Below are positions 1-15,632 of a stretch of DNA of 15,632 nucleotides, piece after piece. A model generated the notes under the pieces. It saw nothing but the letters and a program-made list of their open reading frames with translations. It searched no databases and was not told where the DNA came from. Both the position numbers and the translations under genes were made by a program. The stretch is from positions 1 through 15,632 of IMG/VR virus record IMGVR_UViG_3300027608_000303; one strand, given 5' to 3'. Numbering within the stretch: the stretch's first letter is position 1; every line of letters begins with the position of its first letter. Source of the stretch: a virus.

Positions 1-127
1 ACTGCGTTGATCGCTGGTCGGTCAGAGATTGTGTTTGTCACAAACTCGTTTAGGTGCTGTGGCAAAGTTAGGCCAGTGTTTGTGCTGGTGTCGTCATCCG
101 CAGCACGAACGTACATTTTGGAATCAT
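1..127. repeat. Terminal overlap, copy 1 (identical to 15506-15632); marks circular closure of a 15,505-bp unit
   Basis: Compared base by base: 1-127 and 15506-15632 are the same 127-nt string, and both copies are cut by the window edges. The ORF interrupted at base 1 continues in frame from 15505. Confidence 0.9.
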
Positions 128-809
128 CATCGCCCATAGCGGCTTTGATGGAGTGATCTAGGTAGCTGATGCCATCTACGATCGGTGAGCGTGGCTTAGT
201 AAATGCCACTGGTGCGGCAGCCTGAACAACCGCGCTGGCGGTTACTTCATCGGCCGCTGGGGCGGTGTTTTCGGTTTCCACAATTATCTCCTGTGGTTCA
301 TCCTCTGCGGCTTGTTCCGCTTCGGTGGTTTCTGGGTCGAGTTCGTCATCAGCCTCGGTAGCTGCAACGCTCGCTATTTGAGCATCCTTAAATGCTGGGT
401 TTGTTACATGGGCAACGGCTTCTAGATTGGCTGCACTTACAACCATCACACCGCGCTGGATTGTGTATTCATTGACGGCTGCCTCAATGCTAAATGCCGG
501 GCGCAATCCCTCAGATGCTTCGACTAGTGCATCATTGCCAGCATTAGTAGGTGCAATTTTGAATGCCATTGAAACGCCAGCAGGGCTGACTTCTAAAGAC
601 TCCGCGACTCCGCGACCTAGGGGTCTGGTTCTGTCATGCTCGCTATTAAGAATTATTTGGCTTGGATCGATGTCACCAAACGCGCCAAACTCAAAGCGCA
701 CTGGACCAGCCGATGTATTGCCAACTTTAGAAAACGGGACCACCAAACCTCTGATAGTTCTGGTTTCAACTGATGCGGCCAAGACTTGGCCCTCAAAACT
801 AATTTGCAT
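1..809 (-). CDS. N-terminal part of a prohead protease - acidic linker - major capsid protein fusion ORF (continues at 15505 in the circular molecule; 516 aa in total)
   Basis: Absent from the ORF track because it runs off the window start. The minus-strand ATG at 809-807 is preceded by GAGAGGAAA. I checked every codon from 807 down to 3 and found no stop. The frame matches the 14764..15621 ORF (809-116 = 693 = 3 x 231). The translation starts MQISFEGQVLAASVETRTIRGLVVPFSKVG and includes LNSEHDRTRPLG, GLRPAFSIEAAV and LEAVAHVTNPAF. That pattern fits HK97-type prohead proteases (MEROPS S78 / Peptidase_S78). An acidic stretch follows: ATEADDELDPETTEAEQAAEDEPQEIIVETE. Confidence 0.85.
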   Translation of the reverse strand, partial: MQISFEGQVLAASVETRTIRGLVVPFSKVGNTSAGPVRFEFGAFGDIDPSQIILNSEHDRTRPLGRGVAESLEVSPAGVSMAFKIAPTNAGNDALVEASEGLRPAFSIEAAVNEYTIQRGVMVVSAANLEAVAHVTNPAFKDAQIASVAATEADDELDPETTEAEQAAEDEPQEIIVETENTAPAADEVTASAVVQAAAPVAFTKPRSPIVDGISYLDHSIKAAMGDDDSKMYVRAADDDTSTNTGLTLPQHLNEFVTNTISDRPAINA

Positions 810-1926
810 TTTCTGTGTTTCCTCTCGGTGCAAGATCCATTTCTTCACGCGCTTCTTCAACGTCAATTAGTCCGTAGTCGAGCATTTTGCCAAGAACTTC
901 AATCTGCTCTAGTGGGTTTCCGCGTAAGTAATCATCTAGATCAAATCTGACAACTTGGCCTCTTGGAGTTATGTCATTCATGCTTAGACGTTCAGATACA
1001 CACGACATAAACGGTTTAAGGCTAAAGTCCACAAGGCTGCGGCGTTCTTGACTTACGTTGGAATAAGTTGCGCTGGCTGATTCGGCGTTGATGTACCAGG
1101 CAGGGATGTTGCACATACGCGCAATTTCAGCTGCGGTGTTCAAGCGTGATTCCGTCAACTGCATTTGTCCGGCATCGTATCCAAAAGTCGTGACATCTAA
1201 TGGGCCAGATAGGTATGCGGTTGAGCGTGTGGCTCGGGCTTGCTTCCACTGGGCCAGTAGGCTCGACACCTGCTCTGGCGGTAGATCCACGCCACTATTC
1301 TTGATTACCATTGTCGGGTTTGGCTCGGCGGCCATTCGGCTGACTGCCTTTTCAAGTTCCAAAGCGGTTGAGATAGTGCGGCCACCTCGGTTGAGTATGC
1401 CCTCGTCAATACCGCTAAACATAATGAGCGAGCCAACCCCAGTTATTGGGGTTAAGTATCCGTCAAGGTAAAAACCGTTTACGATCTCATCGGTCATTGT
1501 GTCAGTTGTAAAAGTCACGCGCATTGGATCTACACGCCGAGCCTGTGTTGGTCGGCCATCCTCTGGGCTAGTTGCCAAAACAACCCAAAAGGCTTGCCCC
1601 TGAAATAATAAGTCCTCTACAGTCCACGCCATAGTGACCGCTAATGGCAACGCTGGGTCGGGTTGCTTAAGTATGCTGCGGCCCTCAACCTTTTCGCCTG
1701 TAATTTCGTTGTATGAGTTAAGGCCGAGTGTAGCAATCGTGCCAGCAATGATGTTTCGCGCCCGGGCAACTGCTGGAACTTGCATTGCATCGGATCGGCT
1801 TACGCGGATCATTGCTAATGGCGACCAAGAATCTTGGTAATAGGGTATCTGCACACCAGCCTTAGCAGCTGCTTTAATCTCTGTTTTTTCTTGGCTAGTG
1901 CCAAGCAAAAAATCTATGAATCCCAT
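799..1926 (-). CDS. Portal protein (HK97-family type)
   Basis: 375-aa ORF directly after the large terminase and directly before the protease. The length and sequence character resemble Phage_portal family proteins. Its stop overlaps the next gene's start by 11 nt. Confidence 0.85.
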   Translation of the reverse strand: MGFIDFLLGTSQEKTEIKAAAKAGVQIPYYQDSWSPLAMIRVSRSDAMQVPAVARARNIIAGTIATLGLNSYNEITGEKVEGRSILKQPDPALPLAVTMAWTVEDLLFQGQAFWVVLATSPEDGRPTQARRVDPMRVTFTTDTMTDEIVNGFYLDGYLTPITGVGSLIMFSGIDEGILNRGGRTISTALELEKAVSRMAAEPNPTMVIKNSGVDLPPEQVSSLLAQWKQARATRSTAYLSGPLDVTTFGYDAGQMQLTESRLNTAAEIARMCNIPAWYINAESASATYSNVSQERRSLVDFSLKPFMSCVSERLSMNDITPRGQVVRFDLDDYLRGNPLEQIEVLGKMLDYGLIDVEEAREEMDLAPRGNTENAN

Positions 1927-1928
1927 TT

Positions 1929-2000
1929 TGTCATTACACCATAGGCAAATGACATTCGTGTAATTTGTCAGGCTTTGTCACTTTGTTGCGCGTGTTGTCA
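1929..2000. promoter_or_regulatory. Cluster of TGTCA/TGACA pentamers in the terminase-portal spacer (candidate protein-binding sites or RNA hairpin)
   Basis: TGTCA occurs at 1929, 1966, 1976 and 1996 (spacings of 10 and 20 bp among the last three), and TGACA at 1950. TGTCATT (1929-1935) and AATGACA (1948-1954) form a 7-bp inverted repeat with a 12-nt spacer, ending 2 nt from the portal ATG on the minus strand. Confidence 0.4.
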
Positions 2001-2001
2001 C

Positions 2002-3465
2002 CTATGCGCTGACTATGCTCACACTTTGTTGTGGCTCGGTGGCGTGACCCACTGCCATGACCAAAGCGATTGCAGCTGTGATCGGTACTTGCGCGGCTCG
2101 TCTAGCAATACGCCATCCGCCATCCGATGCCGGGCGGCGAGCGCAACTGACCAAGTGGCTGTGCATAGTTTCTTGGGCAGGATGTAGCAGCTGCCGAGAT
2201 TGCATTGCGTTCATTGCCTGGTCACACATGATCGAAAATCCTGCCGAGTTCCAAGGCGTTGGCGCTGTCGGGATTCCAGCCTGGGCAAGTCTTGGCGCAA
2301 TGTAGCCAGCAGTATTGGGATCATAGGCCAGCACCCTTGGGCGATAGCGCCGAGTCAGTGCGGCTATTTCCCCAGCTAGTTCTAAGTCGTTAATGCCGCC
2401 CTCTTTTTTCCATTCGTGCAGAAATACGCCATACCCGTTTTCTCTCTGTTGCAAAGTAACCAGGCAAGCCAACTCCCGATTGAAATTGAGATCCATTGCC
2501 ATCCAAGTTGGCAACCCATCCTCAAGCATGATGTCGGCTTCGCATTCGTTCCATACCTGCATTGGCCAAGGCGAGTCGATAGCATCCACCCACATACAAA
2601 GGGTTTCAGTTTTGAACGCATCGGGTGAGTCAAAGGTCGCAGCATCCTTGATGTTTTGTTCGTTAATTGTGTAGCCCATTGCAGGGTTGGCCATTTTCCA
2701 GGCTTCGATGTCGTCAACCGATGAACCTGCTGCGGCGCTGTATTCGTAGTAGCCCATTCGATCACTGGCAAAGGTCAGGGCGCGGCGGCGTTGTTCGTTT
2801 AGCACATTGGAAGTTAGATCCCCAGCATTGGATGTCCAAAACACTTGGGCATTGGGTCTGGCTCGGGTAATGGGGGTGACGGCTGCCCAAGTTGCCTCGT
2901 CAATTTCTCGCAGCTCATCGACATAAAGTAAGTCGGCGGTGCTACCGCGTGGCCCCTCGGATGTTGCGGCTCGGATGGAATATTTGCGAATACGCTCACA
3001 CTTTTGCCCACATGACTTGGGGTAATGATGGCAGTAAACCTCTAACTCCTCTTGGCCGTTAGTTCGGGAAACTCGCTTGATCCGCTTGCGCATCCAGTCC
3101 AGGCTTTCGGCCATGTCGACTGTTTGCTTGAAAGTGTCCAGCGATAGTTGCCGAGTCTGCGACATGGCGATGGCATTCTTTTCACCAAAGACATACAGGC
3201 CAGCCAAGATCCGCATCCGCATCATGTGCGTTTTGCCATTCTGCCGGGCGACCAAAACTCCTACACTTGAACGCGCCCACTTGCCATTTGGCAGAATCTT
3301 TAGGGCATCATCCATGACGTGTTGTTGCCAGGGTAGGAGTGGGACTCCTAGTTCGTCAGCTAGTGCCGATACCACTGGCCCTGCGCTGGGCAGGTTTAGG
3401 CTTGGGCTTTCGATCCTTGGCTTCGATAAGCCGTAGATAGTTTCCGACATGATTAGTCCCGTCAT
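2002..3465 (-). CDS. Terminase large subunit
   Basis: 487-aa ORF with a Walker A-like LVARQNGKT and a Walker B-like LLYVDELREID, followed by a C-terminal nuclease-sized domain. It lies between the small terminase and the portal. The start is uncertain (ATG 3465, ATG 3450 or GTG 3375). Confidence 0.92.
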   Translation of the reverse strand: MTGLIMSETIYGLSKPRIESPSLNLPSAGPVVSALADELGVPLLPWQQHVMDDALKILPNGKWARSSVGVLVARQNGKTHMMRMRILAGLYVFGEKNAIAMSQTRQLSLDTFKQTVDMAESLDWMRKRIKRVSRTNGQEELEVYCHHYPKSCGQKCERIRKYSIRAATSEGPRGSTADLLYVDELREIDEATWAAVTPITRARPNAQVFWTSNAGDLTSNVLNEQRRRALTFASDRMGYYEYSAAAGSSVDDIEAWKMANPAMGYTINEQNIKDAATFDSPDAFKTETLCMWVDAIDSPWPMQVWNECEADIMLEDGLPTWMAMDLNFNRELACLVTLQQRENGYGVFLHEWKKEGGINDLELAGEIAALTRRYRPRVLAYDPNTAGYIAPRLAQAGIPTAPTPWNSAGFSIMCDQAMNAMQSRQLLHPAQETMHSHLVSCARRPASDGGWRIARRAAQVPITAAIALVMAVGHATEPQQSVSIVSA

Positions 3466-3733
3466 TTTCCTCGCCCTGTTTTCCTAGTGTTCGTGTTTCG
3501 ACTGTGAGATGCAACTGCTGTAAGACTTGTAAATACTTTGCCGCCAAAGGCGTGGCCTCTTTGAGATCGCCCATGTCAAAAGCAGTATCTAATGCCAAGG
3601 CGATCCGCCGGGCGAGAGTCATGGCCGCTACATCAGTTGGCGCGATCCAATTCGCTACCGACAATGCAGAATTCAACGATAGGTAGATGCCCATTGGTTT
3701 ATCCTCTGGCGCTTCTGGATTCTTTAAGGTCAT
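3356..3733 (-). CDS. Terminase small subunit (putative)
   Basis: 125-aa ORF between the HNH gene and the large terminase. It is helical and has a basic C-terminal tail (KDRKPKPKPAQRR). The call rests mainly on position. An ATGA overlap links it to the HNH stop. Confidence 0.6.
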   Translation of the reverse strand: MTLKNPEAPEDKPMGIYLSLNSALSVANWIAPTDVAAMTLARRIALALDTAFDMGDLKEATPLAAKYLQVLQQLHLTVETRTLGKQGEENDGTNHVGNYLRLIEAKDRKPKPKPAQRRASGIGTS

Positions 3734-4077
3734 GGCTTGGGCCTTTCGGTTGTGGGTGGATCAAATCTGACCAATCGGGGAGAAATAAGAGAAAGGGAGT
3801 CTGTGGGTGGCACGGCCCTAGAAAAAACGCCCCTATGGCTCTCTGTGGCTCTCTGGCGTGTGCTGTTGAACCGTGATGTCTTGGCCTTATGACACGGCTT
3901 ACACAATGGTTGCACGTTGTCTATAGTGTTACTGCCCCCAGCGGCTAACTCGATGATGTGATCCACCTCTGTTGCCCGGTCACCACACATCAAGCACGAC
4001 TTGCCCCATACTCTGAAACACGCAGTCCGTAGATTGCGCCATTGGGTGGTAGTTCCCTGACTATGCGCTCTACTCAT
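3730..4077 (-). CDS. HNH endonuclease
   Basis: Contains CLMCGDRATEVDHIIELAAGGSNTIDNVQPLCKPCHKAKT, which carries CxxC, the H-N-H residues and a second CxxC. Placement next to the terminase matches the HK97-like cos packaging arrangement. Confidence 0.9.
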   Translation of the reverse strand: MSRAHSQGTTTQWRNLRTACFRVWGKSCLMCGDRATEVDHIIELAAGGSNTIDNVQPLCKPCHKAKTSRFNSTRQRATESHRGVFSRAVPPTDSLSLISPRLVRFDPPTTERPKP

Positions 4078-4321
4078 GCCCAGCCATTATGTTGTAAGCA
4101 TCCATCAATCCTCGTTCGTATTTGTAGTTTGCTGGATGTATGTCAAGTATGTAATCAGTCAGCTTATCTAAGCGTTGTTTGTATGTTGCTTCAATGATGC
4201 TTGCTAATTCTTTTGCATCCTTGATCTGTTCTTGTAGTTGCGTATGATCTTTCCTTAGATACTCAACCATCGCTACATACTCCAAGAGTTCATCGTGCTT
4301 TACCTGCACCCATCTCGTCAT
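4070..4321 (-). CDS. Hypothetical small coiled-coil protein
   Basis: 83-aa ORF that overlaps the HNH start by 8 nt. The sequence is heptad-like and charged (LQEQIKDAKELASIIEATYKQRLDKL). By hand count it is ~40% GC, lower than neighbouring genes. The Shine-Dalgarno is weak. Confidence 0.65.
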   Translation of the reverse strand: MTRWVQVKHDELLEYVAMVEYLRKDHTQLQEQIKDAKELASIIEATYKQRLDKLTDYILDIHPANYKYERGLMDAYNIMAGHE

Positions 4322-4690
4322 GATTTAGATCGTAACCTATACTTGCCACCCGAGCCGATAGGTGAGCAGGGAATGGCATTGAGTCAAGCCACTCGCCACC
4401 GTCACCGCGTAGGTTTGATTGGTCATGGGTGCTTTCGCACAATCGCGCCGTGTGCCTTAGTGCTGGGTGTTTTGATGCCAGGCGATTCGTGTTGACATCA
4501 GCTGCTAAGGCTCGCATTTCTGCTATTTCATGGGCTTATCAATCCATGCCGAGATACGCCATCTGACGGCGGTTCACCCGAGGATTGGTCGGGCATTAGT
4601 TATACTCTTAACTAGAGTGTTGAGGCTCACGATGTTAGCATCGTTATGAACGGCACGCGGTTCTTTCTTGGGATCCGCGTGTCGTTTGTT
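4322..4690. other. Largest non-coding region (369 bp); candidate cos / late promoter / structured RNA region
   Basis: No convincing ORF in any frame. The core is ~58% GC (hand count of 4341-4460), while the flanking genes are ~40-42% GC. It contains a perfect TTGACA (4492-4497, plus strand), TATACT (4601-4606, plus strand) and three consecutive hairpins. Confidence 0.6.
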
Positions 4691-4692
4691 TT
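4654..4692. terminator. Stem-loop directly after the last early gene; the T-tract is on the plus-strand side
   Basis: CACGCGG (4654-4660) pairs with CCGCGTG (4675-4681), and further imperfect pairs form in the 14-nt interior. On the plus strand it is followed by TCGTTTGTTTT (4682-4692). On the minus strand it starts 9 nt after the TAA of the 4691..4981 gene. Confidence 0.5.
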
Positions 4693-4981
4693 AAATCAAA
4701 TCTGCTGGTCCTAGTTTTTCGTAAAACTTTTCCCAATTACCACAGCAATGTGTCACCCACATACGCTCATTAGTATCAGGATCAACACCGAAATCAACTG
4801 GTTCAAGTATCTTGGCGCACTGTGGGCATGACTGTGGCAAGTTTTGAGCTGCTAGATAATGACCTCGTATCTTGCCCTCAATACTTGCCCAAACTGCATC
4901 GCTTGAAATTGGTTCTTTCATTATGTTTTCCAATACCCTTTCGATCTCATCCACGATTTTGCCATTTCTCACAAAAGTCAC
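4691..4981 (-). CDS. Hypothetical small Cys-rich (zinc-ribbon-like) protein
   Basis: 96-aa ORF with a GTG start at 4981 (an internal ATG at residue 21 is also possible). It carries CPQC and, 24 residues later, HCC. About 42% GC by hand count. Confidence 0.6.
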   Translation of the reverse strand: MTFVRNGKIVDEIERVLENIMKEPISSDAVWASIEGKIRGHYLAAQNLPQSCPQCAKILEPVDFGVDPDTNERMWVTHCCGNWEKFYEKLGPADLI

Positions 4982-5034
4982 ACGGCTTGCCTATGTATAC
5001 CCATCCACCGCAACCACAGCGCATGATGTCAGCA

Positions 5035-5409
5035 TCAGTTCCCATCGAATAACCTCACTTGCTCTTGTACCTGTCCACCGCGCCACACTGCCAACATTCG
5101 GCGATGGCTTGACTTGCGGTCTGCCGGGCGTTCCCCACATCGCCAGATCATGCCAGATCGAGCAACTGTGTTAAAGGCCGCCCCAATGACTTTGCCTGAT
5201 CCGCCTGGTGCGCCGATCTCGTTGACTACATCCTCGGCTGTAAAGGGTTTACCAGTGCGAGCCATTTGACGTATGCAGATTACGGCTTCGTTGTGCCAGT
5301 TCAGCTGTGATTCCTTAGCAATGGTTATGCCCTCGGCTTTGCCCATGATTCCCTGATGCCGACAGATCGCGCAAAACTTAGGCGCATCTGCACCATGTTC
5401 GCAGATCAC
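5035..5409 (-). CDS. Hypothetical DNA-binding-like protein with an N-terminal CEHG...CAIC zinc motif
   Basis: The track ORF is 5035..5433. A GTG at 5409 forms a GTGA overlap with the upstream stop and follows GGGA, so I prefer it as the start. The C-terminal half (FTAEDVVNEIGAP...VIGAAFNTVARSGMI...SSHRRMLAVWRG) resembles winged-helix-type segments I recall from actinophage proteins of unknown function. Confidence 0.6.
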   Translation of the reverse strand: MICEHGADAPKFCAICRHQGIMGKAEGITIAKESQLNWHNEAVICIRQMARTGKPFTAEDVVNEIGAPGGSGKVIGAAFNTVARSGMIWRCGERPADRKSSHRRMLAVWRGGQVQEQVRLFDGN

Positions 5410-5960
5410 GAGCGATCCCAAATGGCCGCGCATCGCTCGCCCTCGCCACCCACTGGGCAGACATAGCCAGCGTAGGGTGTGCCATCTTTCTTTAGGCCGG
5501 TCTTACGGCGCATTGGCCCATGCTTACATTCCGGAACGCTCAAGTCAGGCTCATCAACTAATGCCCAAGGGTCAACATCTTTTGGCTTTGCTGGCCCAGG
5601 TGCTTGACGATCCTTAGCTGCTTGCACCTCTTGTTTGGATGCAATGCCCTTTGATAACCCAAGCCCTAACGCCGCCAGGCAACGCCCCCAGGCTGATGTT
5701 TCAAGATTCTGGAGTTCACTGCCCCGAGTGTATGGAGTTTTGCCCTCGATCAGTTCGGCGGCTGTGCCTATGCCTGGTCGTTCATCGTCTGGTGTCCGGT
5801 ATGCGTAAGCGATGCCCCACATCATCAAAGGCGATCCCTCAAGTATTCCCTTGAATTCAAATTGCAATGAACCTTGGGGAAAAGTTTTATAGAATTCTTG
5901 AATTCTTTCTTGCACCGTTGTATATGATTCCAAATCAAATGCCATCAGATTTTCCGCCAT
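5406..5960 (-). CDS. Hypothetical protein with a C-terminal CKHG...C...C zinc ribbon; possible ssDNA-binding/annealing role (weak)
   Basis: 184-aa ORF. An alternative ATG at 5945 forms a TGATG overlap with the upstream stop. The segment LETSAWGRCLAALGLG loosely recalls Rad52/Sak-type annealing proteins, but I cannot confirm this by eye. The C-terminus reads PECKHGPMRRKTGLKKDGTPYAGYVCPVGGEGERC. Confidence 0.6.
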   Translation of the reverse strand: MAENLMAFDLESYTTVQERIQEFYKTFPQGSLQFEFKGILEGSPLMMWGIAYAYRTPDDERPGIGTAAELIEGKTPYTRGSELQNLETSAWGRCLAALGLGLSKGIASKQEVQAAKDRQAPGPAKPKDVDPWALVDEPDLSVPECKHGPMRRKTGLKKDGTPYAGYVCPVGGEGERCAAIWDRS

Positions 5961-6130
5961 CCATCAGAGATCATCTCATCCTCGATTGTGCGTTGACCTT
6001 GCGCCCATCGGCGGTAGTCAAGTTCCTTGCGCCTTAGTGACTGCTCTTGGTGATTATTCTCTATTGCTACACCGACAACTAAACCGATGATAAAGAATAA
6101 GCCAAAGCCTAAAATCGTTAATAGTCCCAT
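5945..6130 (-). CDS. Small membrane protein (one N-terminal TM helix, charged C-terminus)
   Basis: 61 aa, with LLTILGFGLFFIIGLVVGVAI followed by a charged tail. A good RBS (AAAGGAAACAGGGC) precedes the ATG. Confidence 0.65.
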   Translation of the reverse strand: MGLLTILGFGLFFIIGLVVGVAIENNHQEQSLRRKELDYRRWAQGQRTIEDEMISDGWRKI

Positions 6131-6145
6131 GCCCTGTTTCCTTTT

Positions 6146-6292
6146 CTATTTATCGAGATCGCTGGCTTTGTATCTCTTAACGCCGCCAATGCGTTTGGGC
6201 TTTAATGCCCCTGACTTTTCCCACCTGATAAGTGTGCGTTCACTTACCCGCAGTTTGTCAGCTGCCTCTTTAGCGGTTAGATACTTATCCAT
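6146..6292 (-). CDS. Helix-turn-helix DNA-binding protein (MerR/excisionase-like HTH_17 type), 48 aa
   Basis: Below the track length cut-off, so translated by hand: MDKYLTAKEAADKLRVSERTLIRWEKSGALKPKRIGGVKRYKASDLDK. The ATG at 6292-6290 is preceded by AAGGAAAGGGA, and the stop TAG is at 6146-6148. The pattern (L)T..EAA..L.VS.RT(L).W...G is classic for this HTH family. Confidence 0.8.
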   Translation of the reverse strand: MDKYLTAKEAADKLRVSERTLIRWEKSGALKPKRIGGVKRYKASDLDK

Positions 6293-6309
6293 ACGATCCC
6301 TTTCCTTAG

Positions 6310-6343
6310 TGACATACTATGACAATACCTGACATAGTATCTA
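6310..6343 (-). promoter_or_regulatory. Candidate early promoter overlapping a 27-bp near-palindromic operator
   Basis: TGACA occurs at 6310, 6320 and 6330, an exact 10-bp phasing. Bases 6314-6340 form an imperfect palindrome (ATACTATGaCA...TGaCATAGTAT), with 10 of 13 positions matched per arm. On the minus strand the region reads TAGATA (6343-6338), an 18-nt spacer, then TAGTAT (6319-6314), about 20 nt upstream of the HTH gene ATG. Confidence 0.45.
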
Positions 6344-6345
6344 GG

Positions 6346-6531
6346 TTATTCCTCGGGCGTGTCGTTATCGCGTAAAGGCAGGGTTATCAACCACACCAAA
6401 ACTCCCACGATAATCAGTAACCCTGTGACTTTTTTTGCTGATCCATCTAGGGTGAAATACGCGATAAGCAAGCCGACATAAGTGTATGTATCAGCCGTTA
6501 TTGCTGAAACGTACCTCTTGAGCCATTTCAC
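6346..6531 (-). CDS. Small membrane protein (two TM helices)
   Basis: 61 aa, with a GTG start in a GTGA overlap preceded by AAGGAG. Hydrophobic segments are YTYVGLLIAYFTL and VTGLLIIVGVLVWLITLPL. It is the last gene of the late operon. Confidence 0.7.
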   Translation of the reverse strand: MKWLKRYVSAITADTYTYVGLLIAYFTLDGSAKKVTGLLIIVGVLVWLITLPLRDNDTPEE

Positions 6532-7358
6532 TTTATTCTCCTTATGCTAGTTGCTATTTGTCCGACAAGGACTGCACCGATCACAACGCTTTGAGATTCC
6601 TCACGCTGGTCAGGGGTCATGTCATTGCCAACATTCAGAATGGCCTCGGCAGCTGCGATCACTTGTGCAGCGCCCGGCAAATCCGCCAAAACGGGTGGTA
6701 GTTCAATTACGATTGGGGGATCAGGTGCAAGTGCTGGTGGCTCTGGGGCAAGCGCTAGTGGTTGCGGTGCTAAAGGCGGTGGCTCGGATGCTACGACAGG
6801 TGGCAAGGGTGCTGGCGTTGGTGGCTCTGGCCGTGGTGTTGGTTCTGGTGTTTGTGTTGGTGTTGGCGTTGGCTCTGGGGCTGGCTCTGGCGCAACTACT
6901 GGCGGCGGGGTTGGCTCATCACTGACCACAGGCTGCGGCACTGGCGGATCGCTCGGGCTTGGTGTCGGTGTTGGCTCTGGCATCGGGGTGTCGCTCGGTG
7001 TGATTATTGGCTCGGGTATAGGTGTTGGATTAACTGGAGGAGGTTCAGATGGTAAGGGTTCTGGGATTATTCCTGCGTAGTAGCGTTGTGGATCATTTGG
7101 TAGCAAAGAGTCACTTATGTAAATTGTGTATGGGCCAGCCCAACCACCCTCACAATAAAGTTGAGCGATGTTCCCCTTATTTTCAAAGTATGGGTTCGAG
7201 TTATCCCAACCAGTTGAAAATGTCCTTTGCTCGCCAGTTATCGGATCGCCACAAGTAATTTCGGCAAAGCCAGTTGCAGCGAATGCTTTGGGCGGTTGCA
7301 ATAGCATCGTGAACCCTACGATGAAAGCGACAAATGCCACTCTCAAAGGCTTATTCAT
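6528..7358 (-). CDS. Secreted, proline-rich, C-terminally anchored envelope protein (function unknown)
   Basis: 276 aa. There is a signal-peptide-like N-terminus (MNKPLRVAFVAFIVGFTMLLQPPKAFA/AT), followed by a ~70-aa two-Cys globular domain. A ~125-aa Pro/Thr/Glu-rich linker spans residues ~98-222 (nt 6693-7067). The C-terminus has a hydrophobic segment, SVVIGAVLVGQIATSI, followed by RRIK. Confidence 0.8.
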   Translation of the reverse strand: MNKPLRVAFVAFIVGFTMLLQPPKAFAATGFAEITCGDPITGEQRTFSTGWDNSNPYFENKGNIAQLYCEGGWAGPYTIYISDSLLPNDPQRYYAGIIPEPLPSEPPPVNPTPIPEPIITPSDTPMPEPTPTPSPSDPPVPQPVVSDEPTPPPVVAPEPAPEPTPTPTQTPEPTPRPEPPTPAPLPPVVASEPPPLAPQPLALAPEPPALAPDPPIVIELPPVLADLPGAAQVIAAAEAILNVGNDMTPDQREESQSVVIGAVLVGQIATSIRRIK

Positions 7359-7744
7359 CAGACTAATTTGGCCTTGATCTGTCTGCCATCTAGGACTATC
7401 GGCGCAGCTGAATCATGCCAGATCCAAAAACCCACCGGCATTGACGGATTACAGTCGATGGTGTGTGACCAGTGCAAGTGATAAGTCTTGCCATCCCAGC
7501 CGCCGATGTTCTTATCATCGTGACCAGTTTCATCCAGTTTGTCTGTGCCAGGGTAACGACCAAAGCGGCCACGCAGTACCGAGCCACCCTTGCTGAATTC
7601 AACACGCAGGATTGTGATCCATTCCCATTGGCCAGCCTTGTCTACCTTGTAAGCAATTCCCTTTGGGTACTCGACCCATGTCCACGCTTTTGGTGGGATT
7701 GATTGTTTGCTAGCACCTGACTCAACTTTCCAAAGTTGGCTCAT
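7358..7744 (-). CDS. Hypothetical Trp-rich protein
   Basis: 128 aa with 9 Trp and no TM segment or signal peptide. An ATGA overlap links it to the holin gene, and a TGATG overlap links it to the next gene. Confidence 0.7.
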   Translation of the reverse strand: MSQLWKVESGASKQSIPPKAWTWVEYPKGIAYKVDKAGQWEWITILRVEFSKGGSVLRGRFGRYPGTDKLDETGHDDKNIGGWDGKTYHLHWSHTIDCNPSMPVGFWIWHDSAAPIVLDGRQIKAKLV

Positions 7745-7983
7745 TTTTCTAGTTTCTTATCGGCATCCGTAAAGATGTCGTTAATCTCTGCGTCATCTAG
7801 GTTGCCGTCTTTGAGGAATGCTCGGGCTAGTCCCTCGATAACTACGGCCACGCCACCAATGCCAGCAATGATGATTGCCTTGGCTGGCTCTACACCTGCC
7901 ACAGCTGATGCGCCTACGACTGAAAGGCTACTGGCTGCAAAGACTGCCACCATTCGTAGCAAAATGTTTTTGGTTTTGTTCAT
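7741..7983 (-). CDS. Holin (putative, two TM helices with a charged C-terminal tail)
   Basis: 80 aa. The two TM segments are LLRMVAVFAASSLSVVGASAVAG and AIIIAGIGGVAVVIEGLARAF, followed by an acidic/basic tail. It lies immediately downstream of the endolysin with an ATGA overlap. Confidence 0.65.
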   Translation of the reverse strand: MNKTKNILLRMVAVFAASSLSVVGASAVAGVEPAKAIIIAGIGGVAVVIEGLARAFLKDGNLDDAEINDIFTDADKKLEK

Positions 7984-8369
7984 GCTCCAAGGATCGCTTT
8001 CGGATCAAGGTCCTTTCCTGCGGACCATCTGATATTGTCGCGCATCTCAAAATGTAGATGCGGCCCTGATGAGTTTCCTGTGCTACCTGATTCGCCAATT
8101 ATCTGACCTTTTGTAACCATTGCGCCTGGCTTAATTCGTACTGCGTTTAGGTGTGCATAGATTACCCAGCCACCCTCGACCTTTTGCACAACCTGGTTGC
8201 CGTAACTTTTGCCCCAATTGGCGTTCTCGATCTTGCCGTCAGCTACTGCCAACACTGGTGTTCCTGTGGGTACTGCGAAGTCAACGCCTGTGTGGTAGCC
8301 CTTTGACCACATCTTGCCTGGCTTCTTGTATGCAGTGGTTATCTTGCCATTTTTAATTGGTAAAGCCAC
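7980..8369 (-). CDS. Endolysin, M23 (LytM-type) metallopeptidase
   Basis: Carries YHTGVDF (HxxxD) and GPHLHFE (HxH) motifs with typical spacing. The track ORF extends to 8417. I prefer the GTG at 8369, which shares one base with the upstream TAG and follows GGAAG. It is a single domain with no recognisable wall-binding module. Confidence 0.88.
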   Translation of the reverse strand: MALPIKNGKITTAYKKPGKMWSKGYHTGVDFAVPTGTPVLAVADGKIENANWGKSYGNQVVQKVEGGWVIYAHLNAVRIKPGAMVTKGQIIGESGSTGNSSGPHLHFEMRDNIRWSAGKDLDPKAILGA

Positions 8370-8617
8370 TACTCTGCCACTTCCAATGCAGGTCCTATAA
8401 AGTTTGTGCCATCCCATGCATAACCAATACCTGCATAAACAGATCGAAAGTTGTTATTGTAAGAAGTTTCAACCCAGTCGCCGCTTAAACCAATAGAAGC
8501 AATAAACGCTTGACCAACAGGTTCGCTGTCTGGAAAAGGTAAATCCTCTATTGTTTCATTGTTAACAACGATTACTTCAACAACATAACCATTTTCAACT
8601 CTTGCAAAATGTGCCAT
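8369..8617 (-). CDS. Small conserved hypothetical protein downstream of the fibre gene
   Basis: 82 aa, starting MAHFARVENGYVVEVIVVNNE. This N-terminal pattern resembles small proteins I recall seeing next to tail fibre genes in aquatic phages, but that is memory only. A TAATG overlap links it to the fibre gene. Confidence 0.65.
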   Translation of the reverse strand: MAHFARVENGYVVEVIVVNNETIEDLPFPDSEPVGQAFIASIGLSGDWVETSYNNNFRSVYAGIGYAWDGTNFIGPALEVAE

Positions 8618-9909
8618 TATGCCAACACCCTAACTATAACTATTCCTGAGCCGCCATTTTTGGAGTTTTTGCCAGCCCCGCCGCCGCCGCCGCCGCCGCC
8701 TGTATTAGCAGTTCCAGCGGTTGCATTATCTGCGTTTGAAGCACCGCCAGTGCCTCCGCCGCCGTCACCGCCTGCAGCTGTCGTGGTTAAATTTGAACCT
8801 ACTCCGCCACCACCGCCGCCGCCGCGTGTCACTGATGTACCAGTTATTGAACTTGCAACTCCGTCTCCACCTTCACGCGCAGCGTCTGTGCTACCAATTT
8901 CAGCAGCTCCCCCGCCGCCGCCGCCGCTTCGAGTAGCGATAACTGATGGCCCGCCTGCAAATCCTTGGCTAGAAGTTCCCGCGCCACCTGCAATTACTGA
9001 TACAATATAACCGCCGCCACCGCCGCCCGAGCCGCCAAGTGACCCAGCGGTTTCTTGCGCTCCGCCCCCGCCTCCGCCAACACTTGTTAAAAATCCAAAA
9101 TTAGAATTTGATCCATTAACACCGTTAGTCAAAGTAGCAGCCGAAATCTGGCCTGCGCCGCCTGCTCCAACGGCAGCGTAATACGTTCCCGTTTGACCTA
9201 TGTAAAGTTGGTTTTCAGCAGCAGCGCCGCCGCCAGATGATTCGCCTGAAACTGTGCAACGATAGCCGCCTGCCCCGCCGCCTGCTGCTGCATCGCCTGC
9301 GGTTGCATTTTCAGATGTTCCGCCGCCGCCGCCCCCAGCAATAACCAAAGCATCTACTAAACCAGTCTTTGTAAATGTTATTGTGCCGGCACCTGTAAAG
9401 GCATAAGCCTTGTAATTAATTCCGCCACTTGTGTAAGTAGTAACTGTGGGGCTGCCCGTAGTACCAGAAACGGAACTATCAGTTAAAGGAGCAACCCCAC
9501 CGCCAAAAGGGACAACAGTCCAAGCGTTTAAGCCTGTTCGTATTAATGAAGCTGATTGGTATTGCTCAAGAGTCGCAGCTAGATTTGTTACGGTTACGCC
9601 TGCACCCGCTGCAAAAGTTACAGTACCAGCGCCAAGACTTACCACGTTTAAGGTTGCATTGGTTGGCCACACTACCGACGCATTTGGTGGGATTGTGTAA
9701 GTTTGAGCGCCTGCGTTATTGGCCGTTACTGTCTTGCCAATGTCGCTAAGCGCAAAAGTGTATGTAGTGCCTGTCTGTGCTTGATAAGTCGGAATTGCTA
9801 CCGCGCTATCAAAGCCAGTGGCCACAGTCTGAATGGCAGATGCGCCATCCTTGACGTAGTCAGTATTCGTAGGGTAACTAATCCCTAGGTAGGTTGTTGT
9901 TCCAGCCAT
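8617..9909 (-). CDS. Glycine-rich minor tail protein / tail fibre (probable receptor-binding protein)
   Basis: 430 aa. The N-terminus (YLGISYPTNTDYVKDGASAIQTVATGFD) is fibre-like. Residues ~185-430 hold six runs of 6-8 consecutive Gly and end in GGSGIVIVRVLA. This layout is typical of the glycine-rich domain found at the C-termini of phage fibre proteins. Confidence 0.8.
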   Translation of the reverse strand: MAGTTTYLGISYPTNTDYVKDGASAIQTVATGFDSAVAIPTYQAQTGTTYTFALSDIGKTVTANNAGAQTYTIPPNASVVWPTNATLNVVSLGAGTVTFAAGAGVTVTNLAATLEQYQSASLIRTGLNAWTVVPFGGGVAPLTDSSVSGTTGSPTVTTYTSGGINYKAYAFTGAGTITFTKTGLVDALVIAGGGGGGTSENATAGDAAAGGGAGGYRCTVSGESSGGGAAAENQLYIGQTGTYYAAVGAGGAGQISAATLTNGVNGSNSNFGFLTSVGGGGGGAQETAGSLGGSGGGGGGYIVSVIAGGAGTSSQGFAGGPSVIATRSGGGGGGAAEIGSTDAAREGGDGVASSITGTSVTRGGGGGGGVGSNLTTTAAGGDGGGGTGGASNADNATAGTANTGGGGGGGGAGKNSKNGGSGIVIVRVLA

Positions 9910-9910
9910 G

Positions 9911-11155
9911 CTATAAGTCCTGCCATTCCTCTGTACTTGGAGTATAACTTGCCCACGTTACAGTTGGCGCTATTTGCAACCAAACTTTGTGTGGATATGT
10001 CTCGGACAAGGCCGAGCAAACTAAGGTTAGGTCACTTGTGTACCTAGTCAGATTCCATTTCATGCCCTCGACAAAGCCATCAAATGTTGTGCCAAAGACT
10101 GCTGGCAGATCTTGGGTATATACCGCCGATCCAACCATCATGTTTATAAGGGCATTTCTTGTGGCATCGCTTACGGTTGGGCTATGTAATGGAATGGTTA
10201 ATTCCTCGGGGTATGTGCGAGGGTATGCCCGGGATTCTAGGAATGCTGTTGCTTGGATCTCAGCATCTGCACCGTTGTGCAAGGTAGTTGATCTAGTGCC
10301 TGCCAACTGACCATAAGATTGCTGACTTGTGTAATCTGCTGCATAGGCTTCGCCATTGTTGCGATAAGTCACGGTTACATCATTCACAATTTCTGACCAC
10401 TGGGCGGCTTGTCGCAAGCCTGCTGCCAGTAGATCATCATCTGTCAAAGTTAATGGCACATAAACTGACCTAGCCCCGTATGAGTCATAGTGTAGAGAGC
10501 CATCAGGTGCTTCAAAAAGGAAACCGCGACCCGATTGGGCAGCTGATTGAACCAATGAAAGAGCATCGGTTAGGCCGCCTGAGTAGGCTTCTAGCTCGTA
10601 GGTTCCGGGCGTATCAATGTCTGCTATTAGATTATCAACTAAAGTTTGGTTAGTCCCATCCCAGTTTCCCCAAGTAGCAATGTTGCTAACACTTGACCAA
10701 ATCAGATCACCCGGCACTTCTGACCAGTCTTGCAAAAATACATCTGAAAGGATGTTTAAGACTCTTGTGCCGTCAAACTCTTTTGCAAAGCCAACCGCGC
10801 CAGTTGTATGTTTATTAACTAGGGCCAATGGGCCGACGGCTGTAATGTTGTAAATCGCCACAGATCCATCAGATCCATAAGCATCTAGGGTTATGTCAAT
10901 GTCCGAAATTATTCCCGTGTAAATTGTTTTGTAGGCCGCTGTTGAGTCTTGGATCTGGATCTCTACGCTGTCCGACAGATTTACGTTAAGGGCAGTGTCT
11001 GCATCAGTCCATAATCTAACGCTGGCAATGCCGGGTTGAGCCTGCTCGTAGATGTCGCGCCTGCCTAGGCTTATGCCAATGCTGCTAATTGTGTTGTCTG
11101 TGTATTCAACCGAACCAGCAAACACCACTTTTGGATAAGGCGTGTAAGTTGTCAC
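9911..11155 (-). CDS. Minor tail protein, distal tail protein (Dit)-like
   Basis: 414 aa, immediately after the tape measure, with a GTG start in a GTGA overlap. The assignment rests on position and size, plus a general resemblance of the N-terminal ~120 aa to siphovirus tail component proteins. Confidence 0.6.
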   Translation of the reverse strand: MTTYTPYPKVVFAGSVEYTDNTISSIGISLGRRDIYEQAQPGIASVRLWTDADTALNVNLSDSVEIQIQDSTAAYKTIYTGIISDIDITLDAYGSDGSVAIYNITAVGPLALVNKHTTGAVGFAKEFDGTRVLNILSDVFLQDWSEVPGDLIWSSVSNIATWGNWDGTNQTLVDNLIADIDTPGTYELEAYSGGLTDALSLVQSAAQSGRGFLFEAPDGSLHYDSYGARSVYVPLTLTDDDLLAAGLRQAAQWSEIVNDVTVTYRNNGEAYAADYTSQQSYGQLAGTRSTTLHNGADAEIQATAFLESRAYPRTYPEELTIPLHSPTVSDATRNALINMMVGSAVYTQDLPAVFGTTFDGFVEGMKWNLTRYTSDLTLVCSALSETYPHKVWLQIAPTVTWASYTPSTEEWQDL

Positions 11156-12937: not shown

Positions 12938-13321
12938 GACCATTCCTCTCTTGTATCAGCGTTACTGCTGTTGTTATGTCAGCGAGCGACCAAGTCAAAA
13001 GATCGGCCAAAGGGATGCCGGTCGATGTTGCGATCCGCACCAGCGTGTCCCTTAGTTCTCTTTTGGGCTTTCCTCGACCACCTCAAAGGTTTCAAACTCA
13101 TTGGTAACCCAGGCTTGCTGACTTGGCAACTTGGTATGCCCTTGGGCCTTGGCGGCCTTGTAAAGCATACAAGTGATGACATCTAATGAACCTTGGCTCA
13201 TCTTGTCAGCAGCCTGGCTGACTGTGTAGCCGAGTTCGCGTTCGATCTCGATCCACAGCCAAGCCGACTCATCGCTCACTATGTAGTTATTGCCCTGTTT
13301 TGTTGTAACTGTGTATTGCAT
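12930..13321 (-). CDS. Tail assembly chaperone, -1 frameshift (G-T-like) product, ~130 aa
   Basis: After a slip at C CCA AAA, the -1 frame stays open for 43 codons: RELRDTLVRIATSTGIPLADLLTWSLADITTAVTLIQERNGHG. It ends at TGA 12932-12930. This ORF is not in the track because it has no start codon of its own. Confidence 0.6.
13052..13321 (-). CDS. Tail assembly chaperone (G-like, zero-frame product)
   Basis: 89-aa acidic protein between the major tail protein and the tape-measure region. It ends ...EESPKEN and contains a canonical slippery heptamer 6 nt (two codons) before its stop codon. Confidence 0.7.
   Translation of the reverse strand: MQYTVTTKQGNNYIVSDESAWLWIEIERELGYTVSQAADKMSQGSLDVITCMLYKAAKAQGHTKLPSQQAWVTNEFETFEVVEESPKEN
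13061..13067 (-). promoter_or_regulatory. Slippery heptamer C CCA AAA for -1 programmed ribosomal frameshifting
   Basis: Minus-strand CCCAAAA. In the zero frame the codons are AGC CCA AAA, which fits X XXY YYZ. Confidence 0.6.
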
Positions 13322-13343
13322 AAGGGTTGCCCTGTTCTATTCG

Positions 13344-13739: not shown

Positions 13740-13750
13740 GACTTGCCTTT

Positions 13751-14122
13751 CTAGTTGGTTGTGACCATCTCGATGTTGAGTTGGCTTATGAGCATGTCGG
13801 CGTTTCCGATCTGCTGGACTGTTGGTTGTGACCATCCACCCAAAAACGAAATGTTATTAGATAGTAAATCAGTAACCGACAAAATCAAGGTTTCCAAGTT
13901 TGCCAAAGCCGCTTGGTTGTCGGCTGCGTTGACAATCACTGTAATGTCGAATCTGACATTGCATCGAGCGCCACCAATGGCTGACACCGTGATGTAAGGC
14001 GATCCCGGCACAAGCACAATGGCAGGTGGCGTGATGTTTTCATTCGGGTATGAGTAAACTACCCGACCAGCAGCTGCCAGAGTCGTGGCAAGGTTAGCCC
14101 GGTATGTGGCGAGATTACCCAA
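13751..14122 (-). CDS. Head-tail joining / tail terminator-like protein (DUF3168-like)
   Basis: 123 aa, with a TTG start at 14122 that lies 6 nt after GAGGGG. The pattern RVVYSYPNENITPPAIVLVPG resembles the DUF3168 family as I recall it. Its position is between the adaptor and the major tail protein. Confidence 0.55.
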   Translation of the reverse strand: MGNLATYRANLATTLAAAGRVVYSYPNENITPPAIVLVPGSPYITVSAIGGARCNVRFDITVIVNAADNQAALANLETLILSVTDLLSNNISFLGGWSQPTVQQIGNADMLISQLNIEMVTTN

Positions 14123-14690
14123 GGTAACCCCTCGTATCCAGGTGCTTGCCTAGTAGGCCAGATACCCGAGTCAGCATTGAGCGACCCAATCGGTATGGCG
14201 CTGGAGATTGAAAATCCACACCTTGCTGGCCAAGTGTGCCAGTGCGTGTGATCCAAATGTCGCAAGCGATCGCAAGACAAGCCTCTGAAACTTCTGGGTA
14301 TCCACTGTCATACAAAGTCGCTTGGCTAGTCAATACTGCTCGGCCAGTTGGGATTATGTTGCGGCGGATTATGTCTGCGTTGGTGATTGCAGCTGTAAAG
14401 AATGGCTCGCCTGGGCCAGTGTATGAATCTATTACTGTGCGCGATCCATTGAATGGTGATCCGCATCCTGTGACCGTCAAAGCCTGACCAGCAACAAAAG
14501 TGTTTTCGTAGCAATAAAAGGTTGCCACATTGCCTGAAAGTGATACGGACTTAATAGCCACATCATCAAATATTAAATAGGAAAGCAAAATGTTTTCGGC
14601 TGCATCCACAACCTCTTGCACAATAGCATCGGCGTAAATGTCACCAATACCAAGTACGGCTTTTAGCTCGCTTAGTGTAATTAGTGCCAT
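14115..14690 (-). CDS. Head-tail adaptor (gp6-like connector) with an internal insertion
   Basis: 191 aa. The N-terminus (ITLSELKAVLGIGDIYADAIVQEVVDAAENILLSYL) matches the usual start of Phage_connect_1-type adaptors. It is the first gene after the capsid gene and about twice the usual length. Confidence 0.65.
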   Translation of the reverse strand: MALITLSELKAVLGIGDIYADAIVQEVVDAAENILLSYLIFDDVAIKSVSLSGNVATFYCYENTFVAGQALTVTGCGSPFNGSRTVIDSYTGPGEPFFTAAITNADIIRRNIIPTGRAVLTSQATLYDSGYPEVSEACLAIACDIWITRTGTLGQQGVDFQSPAPYRLGRSMLTRVSGLLGKHLDTRGYLG

Positions 14691-14715
14691 TGTTTAATCC
14701 TGTCTAGTAAAGGGT

Positions 14716-14747
14716 GTGTGGGGGACACAGGGCCGCATCCCCCACAC
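14716..14747 (-). terminator. Strong GC-rich stem-loop after the capsid gene (terminator or attenuator)
   Basis: GTGTGGGGGA (14716-14725) and TCCCCCACAC (14738-14747) form a perfect 10-bp stem with a 12-nt loop. It sits between the capsid stop (14764) and the adaptor start (14690). The T-run is on the plus-strand side, with only a short TTT on the minus side. Confidence 0.55.
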
Positions 14748-14763
14748 TTTTGTTGAACGATCC

Positions 14764-15632
14764 CTAGGCGATGTTCAAGCGGCGGATGCCGTCTGCTTGC
14801 TTCACTGCAATGGCCATGTAGCCATATAGGGAAATGCGAACCTGACCTGTTTCGATCAAGTTGACCTGCAAGCGAGTTGTTGGTGATTCGTAAACGCTCA
14901 CGCAATCTGGTGCAATGATGAACGCGCTGTCATCGATCCAAGTTGCTGCTGTTACATACGGATCTACATACAAGTTCAAGCCTTGGATATTTCCATCAGC
15001 TGCGCCAGGTGTTAGTGCGCCCGGTGCATTTTGTACGTTGTAGGCAGTGTAAAGAGGGCGGTTTGAGCCATCTACTGCGCCCATTAGGCCACCCCATACT
15101 GCGGTGTTAGCAACTACGTTGCGAGCCTTTTTCTTTGTTGCCTTGTAGAGAGCTGCTGATTCAGTTCCAACGTAGGAAGTGAAACCAACGGCAGTTGCAG
15201 CAACGCCAGTTGATGCTGTGCCTTGTGCTACAAACTGAGCAAGAAGTGCTTCGTCTGTTGCCTTAGCGTAAGCATCGTTCATCTGGGAAAGAAGTAATGA
15301 GAGAAATTCAGGACTTGATCGGTCCAGAAGTTCCCAGCTCACGTCATTACGGCCAGCGAACTTGTTTACAGTCACTGTTAGATAATCGGAAGTCATACCT
15401 GTTTCGGATGGGCTTTGGTTTTCGTCAGTGTCAGCCACAGTTGGCGCAGTTCCCAATTTAGGAATAGTGAATGACATACCTGAACTAACTAATGATTCGC
15501 GGCGTACTGCGTTGATCGCTGGTCGGTCAGAGATTGTGTTTGTCACAAACTCGTTTAGGTGCTGTGGCAAAGTTAGGCCAGTGTTTGTGCTGGTGTCGTC
15601 ATCCGCAGCACGAACGTACATTTTGGAATCAT
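14764..15632 (-). CDS. C-terminal (major capsid protein) part of the same protease-capsid fusion ORF
   Basis: Open frame to the window end, with stop TAG at 14764-14766. The Met at 15621 given in the track is internal (residue 232 of the joined 516-aa product). The position between portal/protease and the head-tail adaptor, plus a ~285-aa size, fits an HK97-fold capsid protein. A strong hairpin lies immediately downstream. Confidence 0.8.
   Translation of the reverse strand, partial: DSKMYVRAADDDTSTNTGLTLPQHLNEFVTNTISDRPAINAVRRESLVSSGMSFTIPKLGTAPTVADTDENQSPSETGMTSDYLTVTVNKFAGRNDVSWELLDRSSPEFLSLLLSQMNDAYAKATDEALLAQFVAQGTASTGVAATAVGFTSYVGTESAALYKATKKKARNVVANTAVWGGLMGAVDGSNRPLYTAYNVQNAPGALTPGAADGNIQGLNLYVDPYVTAATWIDDSAFIIAPDCVSVYESPTTRLQVNLIETGQVRISLYGYMAIAVKQADGIRRLNIA
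15506..15632. repeat. Terminal overlap, copy 2 (identical to 1-127)
   Basis: Same 127-nt string as 1-127. It lies inside the capsid coding sequence, so it is not an intergenic repeat. Confidence 0.9.

Follow-up and report, generated by a model that had tools for sequence, protein, structure and literature searches.

A complete 15.5-kb genome of a minimal freshwater siphovirus, very probably with cohesive ends inside its HNH gene

The IMG/VR record IMGVR_UViG_3300027608_000303 is a 15,632-nt stretch of viral DNA, analysed here over its full length (the window), which begins and ends with the same 127 nucleotides. Does the window hold a whole phage genome, and does the repeat mark the physical ends of the packaged DNA or only the way in which the genome was assembled? 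We conclude, with a probability of about 0.88, that the window holds the entire genome, 15,505 bp in length, of an uncultured siphovirus that was found in surface water of the Laurentian Great Lakes and is probably lytic, and that its virion DNA is likely linear with cohesive (cos) ends. These ends would lie inside a gene for an HNH endonuclease, next to the terminase genes, and not at the repeat.

Closure of the window

Positions 1-127 equal positions 15506-15632 exactly, as an initial annotation made from the letters alone had stated, and 127 nt is the length of the longest prefix that equals a suffix. An exact match of this length cannot be a chance event. Removal of the redundant second copy leaves a unit (1-15505) of 15,505 bp with 50% G+C, in which a repeat scan found no further long repeats. 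The joint falls within a gene: on the minus strand, an open reading frame (ORF) begins with an ATG at 809, runs down to base 1, continues at 15505 and ends at a stop codon at 14764-14766. Its two parts of 809 and 742 nt make up 1,551 nt, that is 516 amino acids and a stop, within a stop-free stretch of 1,605 nt. The ORF that the initial annotation expected the joining of the ends to restore is indeed present, and it encodes a fusion of a protease and a major capsid protein.

An exact-protein look-up retrieved contig Ga0049080_10000322 of the Joint Genome Institute (JGI; metagenome 3300005582), which is 15,625 nt long, equal to 15,505 plus 120. It is 100% identical to the window across the 14,485 nt fetched and passes uninterrupted from base 1 to 15505, while its own ends fall near window position 11,900, at a different breakpoint and with an overlap of 120 nt. 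Because this identical contig was broken elsewhere and overlaps itself by another length, the same genome has been closed a second time. Relatives of the capsid fusion are encoded by at least 214 IMG/VR contigs, and the close ones align to the circularised unit in single high-scoring segment pairs across the junction; in one of them (L001), bases 1-8203 match the window from 3792, via the wrap, to 11127. No extra genes, which the initial annotation had proposed to look for as a sign against closure, occur at the junction in the IMG/VR relatives aligned across it. These observations support the window as a complete, circularly assembled 15,505-bp genome that closes on itself, as originally claimed.

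JGI assembles metagenomes with metaSPAdes at k = 33, 55, 77, 99 and 127, and the overlap measures exactly 127 nt because this is the largest k used. The overlap is thus an assembly overlap and not a physical terminal repeat, which bears out the earlier suspicion that it reflects assembly closure. One protein of this genome is also recorded from a JGI contig of 15,632 nt, the length of the window.

Physical ends and unit size

The position of the virion ends is indicated by the contigs of relatives. Contig ends were surveyed in 80 capsid-anchored IMG/VR loci (for starts) and in HNH-anchored loci (for ends). Twenty of the 80 capsid-anchored contigs start exactly at the homologue of 3792, just after a 14-nt core, CCACAGACTCCCTT, and 13 HNH-anchored contigs (12 scored, plus L150) end exactly at the homologue of 3807, just before it. 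Roughly 60 contigs read through the site, and in them no codon position of the core shows variation, in contrast to both flanks; around the core (3760-3835), a conserved GCGTTTTTT run lies upstream and a CTCCCC box downstream. Two contigs carry foreign letters at the left end: positions 1-10 of L036 read CTTCCGATCT, the 3' end of the Illumina adapter, fused straight to the phage left end, and positions 1-14 of L032 read GGTGGTCGCCGTAT, a reverse-complement P5 fragment, fused to the same left end. The adapter remnants and the shared ends mark real DNA termini, not assembly breaks. As untrimmed pieces, these remnants are also contamination of the two public contigs.

The left-end box of the freshwater family (N10-CTCCCC; TCTCTTATTT-CTCCCC) recurs at the same distance from the left end in two cultured phages whose ends were determined physically: CCTGCAATTT-TCTCCCC in SallySpecial and CCGATCTTTT-TTCCCC in Decurro. 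Fixed ends beside the terminase genes are thus found in the relatives' contigs, with the HNH gene adjoining both, and the physical ends of the window genome are very probably cohesive ends at 3793-3806 (minus strand). End repair removes 3' overhangs and fills in, and so duplicates, 5' overhangs; 3' cohesive ends are usual in actinophages. Since the core is mostly missing from both contig ends, we infer 14-nt 3' overhangs.

The core occupies codons 91-95 of the HNH ORF and ends up 60 nt before the ATG of the terminase small subunit (TerS). Beyond it, the HNH codons for DPPTT vary at third positions only, and the HNH stop, which overlaps the TerS start, is kept in 48 of 51 distinct relatives. 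Variation confined to third positions and the retained stop argue that the C-terminal tail of HNH is under selection at the protein level; with the ends placed as above, this tail would be translatable only from end-joined DNA. Such a reading of HNH across cos is not new. The GenBank record of SallySpecial splits HNH into two partial features, one at each end of the genome, and adds a note on cohesive ends; the joined parts form an intact ORF of 138 amino acids.

These elements suggest a packaging cycle. The virion chromosome would be linear with cohesive ends, and TerS and the terminase large subunit (TerL), aided by the adjacent HNH as in HK97-type phages, would cut concatemers at the 14-nt site, probably leaving 3' single-stranded extensions; the gene arrangement suggests that HNH may be required for cos cleavage. 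After injection the ends would anneal and be ligated, restoring the HNH frame across cos. End joining would also yield the circular or concatemeric molecules whose reads let the assembler close the genome, and the assembler would then have written the closed de Bruijn-graph path with ends overlapping by its largest k-mer (127).

Seven relatives assembled from cos end to cos end measure 14,737-15,612 nt and bracket the 15,505 bp of the unit. A few contigs bearing family proteins are longer, at 17-42 kb. Two of these were inspected, Ga0620986_11583 (L166/L167; 41,879 nt) and Ga0485157_0000643 (L169; 29,159 nt); in both, the whole gene order occurs two to three times head to tail, with a period of 14.3-14.5 kb, and no host flanks were found on either. 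The repeated units are similar, not identical, so that the long contigs may be either concatemers or graph walks through strain variants. Their interpretation as prophages or larger genomes was rejected, given tandem units without host flanks.

How do other explanations of the closed window fare? Exact terminal repeats are the usual signature, in contig catalogues, of phages with direct terminal repeats, and the 127-nt repeat could be such a physical repeat at both ends of the virion DNA, produced by T7-like or short-repeat packaging. However, it sits in the middle of the capsid ORF, its length is that of the assembler's largest k, the assembly of the same genome in Ga0049080_10000322 breaks elsewhere and overlaps itself by 120 nt, and the relatives' ends gather about 3.8 kb away, at cos by HNH and TerS, with none at the repeat; we regard this explanation as almost certainly wrong. 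Several IMG/VR relatives were, like the window, assembled in arbitrary permutations, as headful (pac) packaging of circularly permuted DNA without fixed ends would predict. Yet permuted contigs are also expected from cos-joined intracellular DNA in cellular metagenomes, and headful packaging is made improbable by dozens of independent contigs that stop at one nucleotide on either side of an invariant core, by the adapter remnants at that end, and by the order HNH-cos-TerS-TerL, which is that of HK97-type cos phages and is shared with the cos phages Decurro and SallySpecial.

The contigs of 17-42 kb raise a further doubt, namely that the window is chimeric or lacks part of its genome, having closed by accident from a piece of a larger phage or prophage, or from a satellite. 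Against this, the two inspected long contigs repeat a gene order of ~14.4 kb in tandem, the seven cos-to-cos relatives span only 14.7-15.6 kb, and a host search with the capsid profile and the cos DNA signature found nothing in 185,579 GTDB genomes; the presence of packaging, head, neck, tail and lysis genes rules out a satellite. We consider an accidental closure very improbable.

A complete genome with cohesive ends remains our preferred account, and several observations weigh against parts of it. The cos ends are extrapolated to the window genome from relatives with 60-100% capsid identity. The right ends of three contigs (L102, L122 and L143) stop 11 nt into the core (…CCACAGACTCC), and a few contigs, including L046 and L022, begin with the complete core; simple removal of 3' overhangs explains neither these partial-core ends nor the whole-core starts. 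The multi-unit contigs are imperfect repeats and may be strain-mosaic graph walks, not real concatemers. The tape-measure assignment discussed below draws on partial similarity and position, and the Actinomycetota host is a guess from protein similarity.

Gene content of the unit

The unit carries 27 genes at a coding density of 97%, and every convincing ORF lies on the minus strand, in keeping with the single coding strand noted in the initial annotation; JGI gene calls on the identical contig are likewise all on one strand. The packaging, head, neck, tail and lysis genes announced there were identified (Table 1), and its early module of about 1.6 kb can be recognised as well.

Table 1. Features of the window, with coordinates on the 15,632-nt stretch
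Feature	Position	Strand	Remarks
Overlap copy 1	1-127		inside the capsid gene; identical to 15506-15632
Overlap copy 2	15506-15632		redundant; the identical JGI contig passes here unbroken
Protease/major-capsid fusion, 5' part	1-809	-	codons 1-270; Peptidase_S78-like region, residues 40-149
Portal, 375 aa	799-1926	-	Pfam Phage_portal, E = 6e-37
TerL, longest ORF 487 aa	2002-3465	-	Pfam TerL_nuclease and Terminase_6N
TerS, 125 aa	3356-3733	-	Pfam Terminase_6, E = 2e-6
HNH endonuclease, 115 aa	3730-4077	-	Pfam HNH, E = 1.5e-16; last ~24 codons past cos
Predicted cos core CCACAGACTCCCTT	3793-3806	-	14 nt; virion left end 3792, right end 3807 (gene strand)
p83	4070-4321	-	no family match; also called by JGI
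p75	4290-4517	-	no family match; also called by JGI
Early module, ~1.6 kb	4691-6292	-	five ORFs
p96	4691-4981	-	early module
p132	5035-5433	-	early module
p184	5406-5960	-	N-terminal domain phrog_23738; cysteine-rich C-terminus like mycobacteriophage L5 gp49
p61 (early module)	5945-6130	-	small ORF
HTH_17/MerR DNA-binding protein, 48 aa	6146-6292	-	family match; first gene of the early module
Membrane p61	6346-6531	-	no family match
Pro/Thr-rich membrane protein, 276 aa	6528-7358	-	no family match
p128	7358-7744	-	no family match
Putative holin, 80 aa	7741-7983	-	PHROG holin, E = 7e-4; hydrophobic segments read from the sequence
M23-peptidase endolysin	7980-8417	-	Pfam Peptidase_M23, E = 1e-30
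p82	8369-8617	-	grouped with the distal tail proteins
Glycine-rich tail protein, 430 aa	8617-9909	-	Pfam Gly_rich_2; many GGGGG runs
Minor tail protein, 414 aa	9911-11155	-	grouped with the distal tail proteins
Likely tape measure protein, 435 aa	11152-12459	-	PHROG 1538 'tail length tape measure' at C-terminus
p166, 166 aa	12443-12943	-	family-conserved ORF between GT chaperone and tape measure
Tail assembly chaperone G, 89 aa (13052-13321), and GT, 130 aa	12930-13321	-	-1 frameshift
Major tail (tube) protein, 131 aa	13344-13739	-	AlphaFold pLDDT 73.5, Foldseek
p123, neck protein	13751-14122	-	beside the connector
Head-tail connector, 191 aa	14115-14690	-	weak Pfam Phage_connect_1 match, residues 4-40
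Protease/major-capsid fusion, 3' part	14764-15505	-	Pfam Phage_capsid (HK97 fold), residues 246-513

Among the packaging and head genes, the start of TerL is placed 30-50 codons later by other gene callers. The capsid fusion, which the window ends cut in two, is intact as a gene of 516 amino acids on JGI contig L165. The connector sits where Decurro, RRH1, SallySpecial and Penoan have their connector genes.

In the tail region, the model of the 131-aa protein (AlphaFold; predicted local distance difference test score, pLDDT, in Table 1) was matched by Foldseek to tail-tube proteins, namely those of monocin (MttP), phiCD508, phage 812, a gene transfer agent (GTA) and lambda (gpV), with a template-modelling (TM) score of ~0.6 and a probability of 1.0, and the protein as modelled has a tail-tube fold. 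The G chaperone contains a slippery site, CCCAAAA, at 13061-13067, from which a -1-frame GT product extends to 12930; heptamer and -1-frame extension are kept in 51 of 51 relatives. No sheath family matched any ORF. A tube protein, a G/GT -1 frameshift and the lack of a sheath match are together what is expected of a long non-contractile tail.

The 435-aa ORF downstream of G/GT, from which it is separated by p166, is the likely tape measure protein (TMP). By tblastn it partly matches the TMPs annotated in phiBT1 and HTVC112P; the TMP similarity is confined to its C-terminal 70-150 residues, and it has no Pfam match. The location of p166 between the GT chaperone and the tape measure is unusual. 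Its 440 homologues all fall inside the family, with a mean column identity of 87%, and searches of Pfam (up to E = 5), of PHROGs, of PDB sequences and, by tblastn, of INPHARED gave no match for it. Its AlphaFold model (pLDDT 36) is unusable, and the possibility that it is an HK97 gp10-like protein was rejected at an hhalign probability of 0.1%. In the distal tail region (8369-11155), matches are to PHROG 2295 and 7759 and, weakly, to Phage-tail_3; the genes there occupy the place of the minor tail genes of Decurro and RRH1. The 414-aa protein gave only chance-level matches to PDB sequences.

Beyond the lysis genes, the 276-aa protein has a hydrophobic segment at either terminus and, between the two, a long middle part rich in Pro, Thr and Glu. 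Together with the 430-aa tail protein, it is of strongly biased composition, and the two cause swings in GC skew and short direct repeats. The small HTH_17/MerR gene fills what appeared to be a non-coding gap of 215 nt and its relative position is that of the MerR-like gp22 in Decurro.

Family searches of the window proteins detected no integrase, repressor, polymerase or primase, and no tRNA genes were found in the unit. In a genome without recognisable replication genes, p184 is the sole candidate for a replication-related function. It was also considered as a replication initiator, and this was rejected for want of similarity to the 'O-like' gp23 of Decurro; against PDB it has only a marginal match, to the zinc-finger region of NEIL3 (E = 0.8). 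The largest non-coding gap, 173 nt at 4518-4690 (minus strand), has a hairpin, CACGCGG…CCGCGTG, directly after p96 and an AT-rich stretch before p75, and may be the boundary between the small-gene module and the packaging and structural operon. A search for promoters and terminators returned no more sites than in shuffled sequence.

Habitat, host and relation to known phages

The sample behind contig Ga0049080_10000322 is a Laurentian Great Lakes surface-water metagenome of spring 2012 (bioRxiv 10.1101/347021). The phage belongs to a large uncultured family of freshwater that abounds in public metagenomes: 1,512 TerL clusters were counted there at E <= 1e-20, and several of them comprise hundreds of members. 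G+C within the family is 43-52%. In a freshwater virome, RRH1 ranked among the references that recruited the most reads (PMC4771703). Our best guess for the host is a member of the Actinomycetota, since TerL and capsid matches are almost exclusively to actinophages. A cluster-member look-up of 10 family proteins yielded no organism names, and a TerL labelled as belonging to a Polynucleobacter metagenome-assembled genome (a 2-kb contig) was taken as mis-binning. The phage is probably lytic, because neither integrase nor tRNA was detected and no copy occurs in GTDB genomes.

A broader proposal, to which we would give even odds, is that the window stands for a lineage not described so far, ranking between genus and family, of minimal cos siphoviruses with genomes of 14.7-15.6 kb that are very common in lake plankton and probably infect uncultured, moderate- to low-GC freshwater Actinomycetota, with a packaging site in the HNH gene and full-length HNH made only from end-joined DNA. 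If this is true, few abundant lineages of tailed phages in freshwater would be smaller, and this one would offer a natural model of a minimal siphovirus. With the window, the group of ~15-kb minimal siphoviruses known from soil actinobacteria reaches into abundant lake plankton. The window can be used as a finished genome whose termini are placeable without reads, and its catalogue entry should start at cos. Its compact set of 27 genes lends itself to asking what a long-tailed phage minimally needs.

Neither megablast nor blastn found a nucleotide match in 50,697 phage records. At the protein level, the database searches of terminase and portal that the initial annotation had recommended lead mostly to actinophages: TerL matches 1,681 phage records, nearly all of them actinophages and with identities of at most 30%, and the portal has 31-32% identity to Decurro, RRH1 and SallySpecial. 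By tblastn, the capsid fusion is 35-42% identical to proteins annotated as 'major capsid and protease fusion' in phages of Arthrobacter and Gordonia. The best matches of both portal and capsid fusion are tiny actinophages. Small phages of this kind include those of Arthrobacter cluster AN (about 15.0-15.8 kb; 58 records), Gordonia phages SallySpecial (15,896 bp; Emperorvirus) and Schiebs (14.6 kb), Rhodococcus phage RRH1 (14,270 bp) and Curtobacterium phage Penoan (15,303 bp). The initial annotation had named only a few phages with tape measures as small as this, a view that is outdated: 109 cultured actinophages below 20 kb were counted in PhagesDB in 2022 (bioRxiv 10.1101/2022.02.05.479200), among them dozens from cluster AN with the same capsid fusion and gene order. 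Cluster AN has a mean genome size of 15.5 kb and a fused protease-capsid gene (PMC5513430), and no replication genes have been identified in it (PMC5679792). The cultured 'Ca. Nanopelagicales' phages were considered as relatives and set aside: at 39 kb, they are unrelated in size and content.

The unit shares with the small fused-capsid actinophages (the type of Arthrobacter AN, Gordonia CW and RRH1) a genome size within about 14-17 kb, a single protease-capsid gene and a collinear gene order, as judged against the annotated maps of Decurro, Penoan, RRH1 and SallySpecial: cos, TerS, TerL, portal, capsid, connector, tail tube, chaperones, TMP, minor tail, lysis and small DNA-binding genes, and HNH at the right end. 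For only 3-5 of its 27 proteins can a counterpart be detected in any cultured small phage, with identities of 23-42%. PhagesDB and ICTV practice asks for at least 35% shared gene content or ~70% genome nucleotide identity before a phage joins an established cluster or genus, and by these measures the window belongs to none. Protein comparison places it as a new, divergent lineage (~30% amino-acid identity) of a well-documented minimal-siphovirus kind. Nothing is overturned by it: genome size, capsid fusion, HNH beside cos and missing replication genes have all been documented in cultured relatives.

Decurro (cluster AN, Decurrovirus; 15,524 bp) is similar to the window in size (~15.5 kb), with 26 genes almost all on one strand, and in the order of terminase, portal, fused protease-capsid, connector, a major tail protein of ~140 amino acids, chaperones, TMP, minor tail, split lysis genes and small HTH proteins. 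It is lytic, as the window phage probably is, lacks recognisable replication genes and has HNH at the extreme right end by cos; its cos flanks are similar too, with the GCGTTTTTT run close to the right end and N10-TTCCCC as the left-end box. However, detectable similarity is limited to the portal (31%), the protease portion of the capsid fusion (35%), HNH and the M23 lysin, nucleotide similarity is absent, and GC is 60% in Decurro against 50% in the window. The likely TMP of the window has 435 amino acids and the TMP of Decurro 666, and the window has p166 as an extra gene before it. HNH in the window spans cos, whereas that of Decurro ends 27 nt before the genome end; the window comes from freshwater plankton and Decurro from soil.

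SallySpecial and RRH1 are likewise tiny cos siphoviruses with TerS-TerL-portal, a fused capsid and a right-end HNH, which in SallySpecial is split across the cohesive ends in the way proposed for the window. By contrast, their lysis genes lie between portal and capsid, their GC is 68-70%, and SallySpecial is temperate, with a tyrosine integrase and a repressor; only 3-4 proteins are detectably similar to those of the window. Among cultured phages, Penoan aligns with the capsid fusion over the greatest length (residues 8-504, 27%) and resembles the window in size and gene order, with a TMP of 487 amino acids and a host in the Microbacteriaceae. It differs in its GC of 68% and in having part of the early module on the opposite strand, and only HNH, portal and capsid are similar.

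At a greater distance, the packaging region resembles the HK97-type cos system, in which HNH lies directly upstream of cos, TerS and TerL, and the HK97-fold capsid, S78 protease, Phage_portal protein and G/GT -1 frameshift are common to both. Compared with HK97, the window genome is 2.5 times smaller, its protease and capsid are fused, a gp10-like protein was not detectable, and its neck is cut to two or three proteins.

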